From Escherichia coli (GTDB lineage: Bacteria > Pseudomonadota > Gammaproteobacteria > Enterobacterales > Enterobacteriaceae): 64,000 bases of DNA. Below, piece by piece: positions 10,087-16,948 of this stretch. Each line of letters opens with the position of its first letter. Positions within the stretch are counted from its first letter, which is position 1. The translations under genes were made by a program, and so were the position numbers. The stretch lies in assembly GCF_003018255.1 (NCBI RefSeq), contig NZ_CP027440.1. One strand, 5' to 3'. The notes below the pieces were generated by a model that was given only the letters and a program-made list of their open reading frames with translations, did not search any database and was not told the origin of the DNA.

Positions 10087-11052
10087 ATGAATACTGTCGG
10101 CACGCCGTTGCTATGGGGCGGATTCGCTGTTGTTGTCACCATTATGCTGGCTATCGACCTGTTGTTGCAGGGGCGTCGTGGGGCACATGCCATGACCATG
10201 AAACAGGCTGCGGCCTGGTCGCTGGTCTGGGTGACGCTGTCGTTACTGTTTAACGCCGCTTTCTGGTGGTATCTGGTGCAAACCGAAGGTCGCGCCGTTG
10301 CCGATCCACAGGCACTGGCCTTTCTCACGGGTTATCTGATTGAGAAATCGCTGGCGGTCGATAACGTCTTTGTCTGGCTGATGTTGTTCAGCTATTTCTC
10401 TGTTCCGGCGGCATTACAACGCCGCGTGCTGGTGTATGGCGTGCTCGGGGCGATTGTTCTGCGTACCATCATGATCTTCACTGGCAGCTGGCTGATTTCA
10501 CAGTTCGACTGGATCCTGTATATCTTCGGTGCCTTCCTGCTGTTTACCGGCGTGAAGATGGCGCTCGCCCATGAAGATGAATCAGGCATTGGCGACAAGC
10601 CGCTGGTGCGCTGGCTGCGCGGTCATTTGCGCATGACCGACACCATCGACAACGAGCATTTCTTTGTGCGTAAAAATGGTTTGTTGTATGCCACGCCGCT
10701 GATGCTGGTGCTGATTCTGGTGGAGTTGAGCGACGTGATTTTCGCCGTGGATAGTATTCCGGCTATCTTCGCCGTAACCACCGATCCGTTTATTGTGCTG
10801 ACCTCAAACCTGTTTGCGATCCTCGGCCTGCGTGCGATGTATTTCCTGCTGGCAGGTGTGGCAGAGCGTTTCTCGATGCTCAAATATGGTCTGGCGGTGA
10901 TTCTGGTGTTTATCGGTATCAAGATGCTGATTGTCGACTTCTACCATATTCCGATCGCCGTCTCGCTGGGCGTGGTGTTTGGCATTCTGGTGATGACGTT
11001 TATTATCAACGCCTGGGTGAATTATCGGCATGATAAGCAGCGGGGAGAATGA
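10087..11052 (+). CDS. alx: TerC-family membrane protein Alx (putative Mn2+ exporter)
   Basis: 321-aa polytopic membrane ORF. Confidence 0.9.
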
Positions 11053-11144
11053 TTCGCTGTATATTAAGCCATTACTAGAGATAACTCATTCCAGACAAAG
11101 GTGAGCTATTAATTATGTAATCGGCTTATAGCTCTTTACAAAAA

Positions 11145-11390
11145 GACCGCACGGGTGTTGGTGGCGTCAAAATCGCCGAAGCGTTCCCTGGAGGCCGGGG
11201 CGACGCGCATGGATGCGCGGCGAGGGCGCATCTTACAGGGACGTTCCCTTGCGCCCGACCCGGTAGCCGCAAGGGATAAGCTGAGGGAACCGCGCAGCGG
11301 CGATTTTGTTCGCCAGAGCCTGGGGGTGCAGGGGGCGGCGGCGATTGGCCGCCCCCTGCGCGCTCCCTGCGCCAGTGGCTTTATATGGCA
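11145..11390. repeat. GC-rich palindromic intergenic element of unknown identity
   Basis: Inverted arms ggcgtcaaaatcgccgaagcg / cgcagcggcgattttgttcgcc; internal palindromes gcgcatggatgcgc and gttccctg...cagggacgttccc; local GC far above flanks. Confidence 0.4.
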
Positions 11391-11667
11391 TAGCACATTA
11401 AAGGAGCGCAACCGTTCTCATATTCCAAATAGTTTTGCCCATATGTTATCTAATCAGCCTTAGTAGCCAGTCCTTCCCTCTGTTTATGTCAAATAAATGT
11501 AACCATTAAGTTGCAAAATATGACCTCTCTTTAAAATCCAGCATTTTTCGCTTCCCGAAGCTGTAACTTTCCTTATACTCGACCTTGCAAACACTTTGTT
11601 ACATCCTGAAAGATGCGTCGACAGAACGCACCAAGGATGTGCGACAACACAATGAAAGGATCGAAAA

Positions 11668-12912
11668 ATGACTACGCAACGTTCACCGGGGCTATTCCGG
11701 CGTCTGGCTCATGGCAGCCTGGTAAAACAAATCCTGGTCGGCCTTGTTCTGGGGATTCTTCTGGCATGGATCTCAAAACCCGCGGCGGAAGCTGTTGGTC
11801 TGTTAGGTACTTTGTTCGTCGGCGCACTGAAAGCCGTTGCCCCCATCCTGGTGTTGATGCTGGTAATGGCATCTATTGCTAACCACCAGCACGGGCAGAA
11901 AACCAATATCCGCCCTATTTTGTTCCTCTATCTGCTGGGCACCTTCTCTGCTGCTCTGGCCGCAGTAATCTTCAGTTTTGCCTTCCCTTCTACCCTGCAC
12001 TTGTCCAGTAGCGCGGGTGATATTTCGCCGCCGTCAGGCATTGTAGAAGTAATGCGCGGGCTGGTAATGAGCATGGTTTCCAACCCCATTGACGCGCTGC
12101 TAAAAGGTAACTATATCGGGATCCTGGTGTGGGCAATTGGCCTCGGTTTCGCACTGCGTCACGGTAACGAGACCACCAAAAACCTGGTCAACGATATGTC
12201 GAATGCCGTCACCTTTATGGTGAAACTGGTGATTCGCTTCGCACCGATCGGTATTTTTGGTCTGGTTTCTTCTACCCTGGCAACCACCGGTTTCTCCACG
12301 CTGTGGGGCTACGCGCAACTGCTGGTCGTGCTGGTTGGCTGTATGCTGCTGGTGGCGCTGGTGGTTAACCCATTGCTGGTGTGGTGGAAAATTCGTCGTA
12401 ACCCGTTCCCGCTGGTGCTGCTGTGCCTGCGTGAAAGCGGTGTGTATGCCTTCTTCACCCGCAGCTCTGCAGCGAACATTCCGGTGAATATGGCGCTGTG
12501 TGAAAAGCTGAATCTGGATCGCGATACCTATTCTGTTTCTATTCCGCTGGGAGCCACCATCAATATGGCGGGCGCAGCAATCACCATTACCGTGTTGACG
12601 CTGGCTGCGGTTAATACGCTGGGTATTCCGGTCGATCTGCCCACAGCGCTGCTGTTGAGCGTAGTGGCTTCTCTGTGTGCCTGTGGCGCATCCGGCGTGG
12701 CGGGGGGGTCTCTGCTGCTGATCCCACTGGCCTGTAATATGTTCGGTATTTCGAACGATATCGCCATGCAGGTGGTTGCCGTCGGCTTTATCATCGGCGT
12801 ATTGCAGGACTCTTGCGAAACCGCGCTGAACTCTTCAACTGACGTGCTGTTCACTGCGGCAGCTTGCCAGGCGGAAGACGATCGTCTGGCAAATAGCGCC
12901 CTGCGTAATTAA
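11668..12912 (+). CDS. sstT: Serine/threonine:Na+ symporter
   Basis: 414-aa ORF, recognised SstT sequence. Confidence 0.95.

Positions 12913-15052: not shown

Positions 15053-16948
<1,896 letters not shown>

Follow-up and report, generated by a model that had tools for sequence, protein, structure and literature searches.

The GC-rich block between alx and sstT in the Escherichia coli DNA analysed here (a stretch of 64,000 nucleotides, hereafter the window) is, judged by its sequence, an ordinary copy of the TRIP1 repeat, the one known as TRIP1d. With a probability of roughly 90%, we read it as a dispensable, strain-variable extra copy that arrived by replacement of a segment of the spacer and that brings about weak replication pausing and serves as a substrate for recombination. 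The finding itself is not new: the name of the family dates from 1999, its replication gaps were shown in 2023-2024 and this copy was catalogued in 2024. The coordinates of the features are collected in Table 1.

Table 1. Features in and around the element, in positions of the window, with the evidence from which each was drawn
Feature	Position	Strand	Evidence
Allele-specific spacer segment with TRIP1d	11047..11483	.	No alignable counterpart in K-12 or MNCRE44 (three-allele alignment)
TRIP1d, full-length TRIP1 / RRS copy, 264 bp	11149..11412	+	Published locus definition and end-to-end K-12 alignment
5' domain, TwoAYGGAY-like part, enclosing two hairpins	11162..11315	+	Both-side-change pairs: 7 in helix 1, 4 in helix 2
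Hairpin 1, stem CGACGCGCA / TGCGCGGCG, loop TGGA	11201..11222	+	Helix 5: 99.8% of cells paired, 4 of 8 pairs compensatory
Hairpin 2, stem with internal loop, terminal loop AGGGAC	11224..11256	+	Helices 6 and 7: compensatory A-U/G-C
RRS G-quadruplex motif GGGGGTGCAGGGGGCGGCGG	11322..11341	+	Exact match, absent from the - strand
Perfect 12-bp GC hairpin, GCAGGGGGCGGC, 8-nt loop, GCCGCCCCCTGC	11328..11359	+	Helix 9: 5 of 9 pairs compensatory
3' helix, GCGCTCC (11360-11366) with GGAGCGC (11403-11409), variable hairpin inside	11360..11409	+	Covariation

Identity of the block

The spacer between alx (ending at 11052) and sstT (starting at 11668), both on the + strand, measures 615 bp, and the 264 bp of the element contain 66.7% G+C against 37.9% in the remainder of it, in agreement with the earlier note on this DNA, which had described a block much richer in GC than its flanks. 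That note had, however, closed the block at 11390; the true end lies at 11412, and a boundary at 11390 cuts away the 3' arm of a conserved helix (GGAGCGC, Table 1).

TRIP1 was named by Rudd in 1999, and five locus-specific types, TRIP1a-e, were defined by Li et al. in 2024, TRIP1d being given as 264 bp that start 96 bp after the alx stop and end 255 bp before the sstT start (PMC10888264); these distances, laid on the window, give 11149-11412 exactly. Compared with the K-12 sequence at the published coordinates, the element aligns end to end both with TRIP1a (915016-915281; 88.6% identity over 264 nt) and with TRIP1c (2229122-2229394; 88.0% over 267 nt), and it is 100% identical over its whole length in E. 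coli strain DETEC-S792. It shares with the other TRIP1 copies an end-to-end identity of 88-92%, an equal length and a predicted GC-rich 'double-Y' fold, and differs from the K-12 copies by three compensatory pair changes in hairpin 1, with no difference at the level of the family. TRIP1a and TRIP1c are in turn the 'replication risk sequences' RRS-lysO and RRS-dusC of Pham et al. (2023, 2024), which are the same repeat, with the same helices and an identical G-quadruplex motif, the 20-nt sequence described for the RRS (PMC11194060). The G-rich 'RRS-G4' strand of TRIP1d is the + strand of the window. The earlier note had spoken of an element of unknown type and had named a match to a known repeat family as grounds for giving up its proposal; the block does belong to such a family, TRIP1 / RRS, in which this copy has carried the name TRIP1d since 2024 (PMC10888264).

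The same note had set the block apart from REP sequences, and this distinction holds. The REP / BIME elements of enterobacteria are likewise intergenic, GC-rich, palindromic, multi-copy and able to affect DNA topology or replication, but REPs measure about 35-40 bp, follow another consensus and occur in hundreds of copies, whereas TRIP1 measures about 265 bp and occurs in 1-5 copies in E. coli.

A conserved fold on the G-rich strand

The view of the block as a discrete structured element was borne out: relative to dinucleotide shuffles the folding z-score was -4.7 for the + strand as RNA, -5.9 for the + strand as DNA and -6.5 for the - strand as DNA, and none of 200 shuffles folded as well as the block. 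The inverted repeats proposed for it survived in part. The outer arms CAAAATCGCCGAAGCG / CGCAGCGGCGATTTTG (16 nt, 88% complementary) and the inner palindrome GCGCATGGATGCGC are present, as is the perfect GC hairpin, while the pairings GATGCGC..GCGCATC and GTTCCCTG..CAGGGAC are not kept across copies and are by-products of the conserved hairpins. The two ends of the element (GCACGGGTG.. and ..GGAGCGCAAC) are not inverted repeats of each other.

An alignment of 50 distinct copies supported a structure of ten helices and 66 base pairs; in statistics that overstate independence, since the copies are related, standard pairs made up 98.2% of cells (91.7 +/- 0.2% in shuffles) and 27 of the 66 pairs had changed on both sides (15.5 +/- 1.9 in shuffles), neither value being reached in any of 500 shuffles. 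When the 3' partners were slid by 1-3 columns, 39-45% of cells were paired and 3-9 pairs showed both-side changes. Compensations recur across genera and in all helices among these 50 Enterobacteriaceae copies. The consensus energy was -80.9 kcal/mol for the G-rich strand against -57.1 kcal/mol for the other; the + (G-rich) strand was the better folder in 49 of 49 copies, with 253 G-U pairs as opposed to 11 A-C.

The 5' domain is closed by an outer stem (11162-11175 with 11301-11315) and an inner stem (11176-11188 with 11273-11286). Within it the loop of hairpin 1, CATGGATG, is invariant in all 50 copies, which come from seven or more genera, and the loop of hairpin 2 reads ACAGGGAYG, with ACATGGATG in Kluyvera and some others; at columns 103/112 of hairpin 2, AU is found in 30 copies and GC in 20. 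Just 3' of the hairpins lies GGGATAAG, which we had considered as a third free GGA site and rejected, as it pairs with CGTTCCC in TRIP1 and with CTTATCCC in the Marinobacter-type relatives described below. In one copy of Pseudescherichia vulneris (L016:3255-3544) a palindromic insertion of about 75 nt (CAAAATTGCCGGGAGCAATTTTGG..) follows GGGATAAG.

The 5' arm of the GC hairpin belongs to the G-quadruplex motif, and the two arms change together among copies (GGGGGAGGA/TCCTCCCCC, GAGGGCGGC/GCCGCCCTC, CAGGGTGGT/GCCACCCTG, AAAGGAGGC/GCCTCCTTT), the hairpin remaining paired even in lineages in which the best G4Hunter score has fallen from about 1.8 to about 1.0. Because compensatory pairing persists where this score drops, we infer that the hairpin seems to be under selection no less than the potential to form a G-quadruplex. 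The polymerase-stop data, in which a hairpin and a G-quadruplex cannot be told apart, are compatible with this, and the point that the hairpin is kept by compensatory mutation despite lost G-quadruplex potential is not made in the open literature that we searched. The 3' helix covaries as well, reading GCGCTCT/AGAGCGC in Enterobacter sp. ENT03 and CGTTCAC/GTGAACG in P. vulneris and isolate LSJC7. It replaces the TGCGCC-GGAGCG pairing proposed by RNAalifold, which is broken in Enterobacter sp. ENT03. We also discarded a Shine-Dalgarno sequence preceding a small ORF near the 3' end, where AAAGGAGCGCAAC has an ATG behind it in part of the copies: GGAGCGC is a covarying helix arm, and the ATGs are not conserved.

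It is in this pattern of substitution that the possibility of a small Arg/Ala-rich protein, encoded by the open frame at 11155-11463 on the + strand or at 11136-11411 on the - strand, finds its answer. Open frames do run over the block on both strands, and a hypothetical protein has been annotated over a copy in one RefSeq record and in one K. aerogenes record; yet neither ORF has an NCBIfam match, copies differ by 1-nt indels, and the substitutions are compensatory stem pairs rather than changes at third codon positions. We give a coding function virtually no chance, in agreement with the earlier note, which had called these frames not protein-like.

Distribution and the exchange at alx-sstT

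The BLASTN count of copies that the earlier note had suggested turned its guess of a dispersed repeat into a fact: by megablast, the element occurs at 16,419 places in 5,425 of 5,426 complete E. coli genomes (median 3 per genome, range 1-5), the other E. coli copies sitting in the aqpZ-lysO, putP-efeU and dusC-yohP spacers. A phage collection searched with the element gave no match, and the plasmid matches turned out to be mislabelled pieces of chromosome or chromosomal segments. A pattern scan in which each species was represented by one genome also gave copies in Escherichia albertii, Escherichia whittamii and unnamed Escherichia species, in P. vulneris, Pseudocitrobacter, Kluyvera, Klebsiella, Enterobacter sp. 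ENT03 and isolate LSJC7. Two further copies of E. coli type, 90-95% identical to the window, lie on a 583-bp contig labelled Bacillus sp. EB106-08-02-XG196 (L075, coverage 0.72) and on a 2.8-kb contig of a 'Proteobacteria' MAG (L022), and probably represent contamination or mis-binning in public assemblies.

The TRIP1d allele of the alx-sstT spacer, counted with a query that spanned the left junction at no less than 80% coverage, was present in 1,658 of the 5,426 complete genomes (31%), to be compared with 23% in a mostly draft genome set (Li et al., PMC10888264). In K-12 the spacer has no TRIP1d; two units of another repeat, CCCTCTCCCC..GGGGCGAGGGG, take its place, and this K-12 allele, with one or two units, was found in 3,162 of the 5,426 genomes (about 58%). 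Strain MNCRE44 has one unit only, and the repeat has a median of 5 places per E. coli genome. Alignment of the three alleles (window 11047-11483; L010:3547-3944; L076:648-970) revealed no target duplication, a segment of about 437 bp being replaced as a whole. Since this segment has no alignable counterpart and no target duplication is seen, TRIP1d at alx-sstT looks to have been exchanged along with its flanks rather than transposed.

It is against this observation that the idea of a mobile, non-autonomous element (MITE-like, or moving as ssDNA hairpins in the manner of REPs) inserted between alx and sstT has to be weighed. Presence and absence differ among strains, opposite orientations with differing junction DNA are seen at one locus in different strains, at least seven near-identical copies are found in Enterobacter sp. 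ENT03 and 13 places in one K. pneumoniae chromosome, and Klebsiella copies adjoin REP sequences, all of which would suit a mobile element. But the element lacks terminal inverted repeats, the spacer at alx-sstT was replaced and not interrupted, a partner transposase was not found, and each TRIP1 type in E. coli is bound to one locus (PMC10888264). We consider insertion of a mobile element at this site unlikely, and the MITE-like label of the earlier note is not supported at a locus where a segment swap is seen. Some mobility of the family at places other than alx-sstT may nevertheless have occurred, given its multiplication and the flips at other loci.

These flips deserve a description of their own. 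At aqpZ-lysO (L004:2491-2777 versus L005:1994-2280) and at dusC-yohP (L002/L003 versus L008:1986-2272), the whole 275-bp element lies opposite ways in different strains, with 35-65 bp of unrelated junction DNA on each side, and the reversed alleles at the two loci are of a common sequence subtype (CCCCGAAGG, GAAGGGGATAAGCTGAAGGT). Recombination between copies cannot produce opposite orientations with unrelated junctions. Self-complementarity as the cause of the hits on both strands was ruled out, for no match exists between the element and its reverse complement, and the orientation flips among strains are therefore real.

Outside E. coli, the copies of Enterobacter sp. ENT03 (L027-L033) are extended 5' by about 100 nt of further conserved sequence that they share (..GACTGAGTGGCTTT..TGAACTTACAGG..TTTTTTAGAAATCTGGAAGTGTG), which suggests a recent multiplication, and a longer unit, in the ENT03 lineage. 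In Klebsiella most copies lie just 3' of a REP (GCCGGGTGGCGGC..GCCTTACCCGGCCTAC) and a conserved linker, together forming a composite repeat unit, with the REP about 50-90 nt upstream of each copy (L011, L013, L014, L060-L063, L070-L073); at L011 two copies are 437 bp apart.

The position between alx and sstT, on their coding strand, raises the question whether the element is a cis-regulatory structure, acting as a leader or attenuator for sstT or by terminating alx. Behind alx the K-12 allele carries a hairpin and then a T-run, an arrangement missing from the TRIP1d allele, in which the very stable hairpins of TRIP1d could define the 3' end of alx in its stead. No T-run follows the TRIP1d hairpins, however, and neither a sigma-70 promoter nor an intrinsic terminator was found adjoining the element. 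Moreover, 255 bp separate the element from the sstT start codon, and the 184 bp next to sstT, common to all alleles, lie downstream of it; it is missing from about 69% of genomes, K-12 included, and the same repeat stands beside unrelated genes in both orientations. A role in regulating sstT, which the earlier note had entertained, or in terminating alx is in our view very improbable. A separate nested inverted repeat, CATCCTGAAAGATGCGTCGACAGAACGCACCAAGGATG, lies at 11602-11639, about 30 nt 5' of the sstT start codon; it is kept in the K-12 allele except for one base beside its 3' arm, and its only match in Rfam is Zeta-pan at 18.9 bits, which is chance level.

Likeness to TwoAYGGAY RNAs

The Rfam search that the earlier note had recommended gave an answer of two sides: the best match, RF01731 (TwoAYGGAY), covers the model at full length (11156-11321), and its score of 33.1 bits (E = 0.008 in a 2.2-kb search) stays below the gathering score of 43 bits. 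The K-12-type copies (30.9 and 30.2 bits) and that of P. vulneris (31.8 bits) also fall below 43. The Rfam P1 stem and the two hairpins coincide with covariation-supported helices of TRIP1, 7 of the 13 pairs of the P1 stem covarying. As to the AYGGAY loops, loop 1 (CAUGGAUG) fits and is invariant, and loop 2 mostly reads AGGGAY, taking the form AUGGAY in Kluyvera, MGYG-HGUT-00110 and one K. pneumoniae copy. Like TRIP1, TwoAYGGAY has a long closing stem, two adjacent hairpins with loops of (A)YGGAY kind and several copies in a genome; in its original alignment Psychromonas is represented with several copies to a genome, and the authors remarked on very long P1 stems (Weinberg et al. 2010). TRIP1 differs in its loop 2, usually AGGGAY, in a further 3' domain of about 100 nt and in an inner GGCCGGG/CCCGG..GCC stem, and RF01731 was built on Clostridia, gut metagenomes and Psychromonas.

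The pattern scan also brought up elements of about 130 nt in Marinobacter, in Porticoccaceae/Pseudomonadales MAGs and in a deep-sea gamma-proteobacterial MAG (L019:6300-6429, L067:8718-8845, L020, L021, L042-L044), the search pattern having biased which TwoAYGGAY-like relatives were found. They consist of a long perfect outer stem around two hairpins with the loops CATGGATG and ACATGGACG or ACAGGGATG, and just 3' of the hairpins they carry GGGATAAG, the pairing of which with CTTATCCC closes both hairpins, the partner in TRIP1 being CGTTCCC. The Marinobacter relatives score 41.8 and 37.3 bits with RF01731, just below the threshold. We take the likeness of the 5' half of TRIP1 to TwoAYGGAY as a lead and not as a classification; in the open literature searched, this architecture of the 5' half is not pointed out.

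One might accordingly suppose that the element works as an RNA, its + strand being transcribed as the 3' end of the alx message, its 5' domain being of TwoAYGGAY type and its GGA loops binding a dimeric protein such as CsrA. RF01731 is the top match, at full length, for the copies at three E. coli loci and in P. vulneris (30-33 bits) with covarying helices, the Marinobacter relatives have GGGATAAG placed as in TRIP1, and no terminator was found between alx and the element. The CsrA SELEX consensus is RUACARGGAUGU, to which the loops ACAUGGAUGU and UACAGGGAUGU come near, and TwoAYGGAY was earlier proposed as a CsrA binder. The preference of the fold for the G-rich strand, in energy, in G-U pairs and in every copy compared, also agrees with an RNA, but is equally expected if that strand folds as ssDNA. 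Further points speak against an RNA: every RF01731 score of the copies lies below 43 bits, no promoter serving the element came to light (alignments of the sequence upstream of the copies held no convincing conserved one), and copies lie either way round relative to the upstream gene, such that read-through at aqpZ and putP would yield the antisense strand. RNAs of the CsrB/CsrC type carry many GGA motifs in loops and are bound by CsrA in vivo; in the element only two GGA motifs lie in loops, GGGATAAG with the third GGA and the GGAG of the 3' end being parts of helices. At dusC and ybjE (lysO) in K-12 there is no CsrA CLIP-seq peak, co-purification or target prediction, and the CLIP-seq peaks compared, those in genes, include none at a gene beside the K-12 copies. 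An action as RNA appears to us quite unlikely.

Replication and the orientation of TRIP1d

What is established for the K-12 elements offers the framework in which TRIP1d is best understood. The G-rich strand of TRIP1/RRS forms two Y-shaped domains and, at both K-12 RRS, serves as template for the lagging strand. In vitro, Pol I, II and IV are arrested at the G-rich site, and experiments in K-12 showed that in this orientation the polymerase stalls at the folded DNA and the replisome skips on, leaving behind a gap of up to 2 kb; RecA and SSB load on about 2 kb of lagging-strand ssDNA beside the RRS (PMC11194060, PMC10287960). Ectopic RRS in the same orientation show the same RecA/SSB loading wherever they are placed and inverted copies no peak, and deletion of both RRS was possible only with compensating amplification (PMC11194060, PMC10287960). 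In a 2026 preprint (Kusi-Appauh et al.), gaps arose at almost every encounter in the lagging orientation and less often in the other, and the C-rich strand also triggered some gaps (bioRxiv 10.64898/2026.06.16.732529). A related case, cited as an analogue by the RRS authors, is the pilE G-quadruplex of Neisseria gonorrhoeae, likewise a G-rich structure causing replication gaps, which is however short (16 nt), needs an sRNA, serves antigenic variation and does not lie within a 265-bp structured repeat.

The strands of the window could be assigned from three signals. Chi sites (6 on the + strand, 15 on the -), KOPS motifs (0 on the +, 3 on the -) and the weakly negative GC skew of the whole window (-0.011) indicate that the + strand is the leading-strand template, the - strand having the sequence of the nascent leading strand. 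Of the G-quadruplex motifs of the two K-12 copies, the one at 0.915 Mb lies on the top strand and the one at 2.229 Mb on the bottom strand; given the position of the K-12 terminus, each of these strands is the lagging-strand template there, in agreement with the published account (PMC11194060). TRIP1d, on the coding strand of alx, corresponds to the top strand at 3.24 Mb in K-12, in the left replichore. It carries all the sequence features of an RRS and departs from RRS in two functional ones: its G-rich strand is the leading-strand template, and, at 3.24 Mb as against 0.915 and 2.229 Mb, it stands outside the inverted pair that flanks the Ter domain some 650 kb to each side of dif. TRIP1d thus differs from RRS-lysO and RRS-dusC in its template strand, in its distance from the Ter boundary and in being confined to about 31% of genomes, and it is the location in the left replichore with this strand orientation that makes a dispensable, strain-variable extra copy the likeliest reading.

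Given that every conserved helix and the exact G-quadruplex motif are retained, TRIP1d should fold like the K-12 RRS. With its G-rich strand as leading-strand template, it would meet forks in the orientation for which RecA/SSB peaks were reported absent in vivo and gaps infrequent in vitro. Having probably come by replacement of the whole spacer segment and not by transposition, it would have as its main consequences a weak pausing of replication and, occasionally, homologous recombination with other copies; two events of recombination between TRIP1a and TRIP1d are on record (PMC10888264). Its effect on forks is an extrapolation from the K-12 elements, and the word 'weak' may understate it in view of the gaps at the C-rich strand in the preprint. 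TRIP1a and TRIP1c occur in either orientation in natural strains (Li et al.; loci L005 and L008), which weakens the idea of orientation as a selected feature.

The fold and the two hairpin loops are kept far more tightly than a generic polymerase block needs, which hints at a specific ligand outside the replication model. Pursuing this, one may imagine TRIP1/RRS as the enterobacterial branch of a wider group of TwoAYGGAY-type repeats (Marinobacter, Porticoccaceae, Psychromonas, Clostridia), in which the selected fold consists of the two invariant (A)YGGAY loops and the GC hairpin rather than of a G-quadruplex, and in which a dedicated protein binds the single-stranded G-rich strand, be it as RNA (e.g., by CsrA) or as lagging-strand ssDNA. 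We hold this proposal to be doubtful; if it were true, the replication-gap phenotype would be one consequence of a protein-recognised fold and not its whole function. As to TRIP1d itself, understood as a strain-variable extra copy, the strains that carry it are natural experiments for the replication-risk model, since far from the terminus they possess a third full-length element turned the 'wrong' way.
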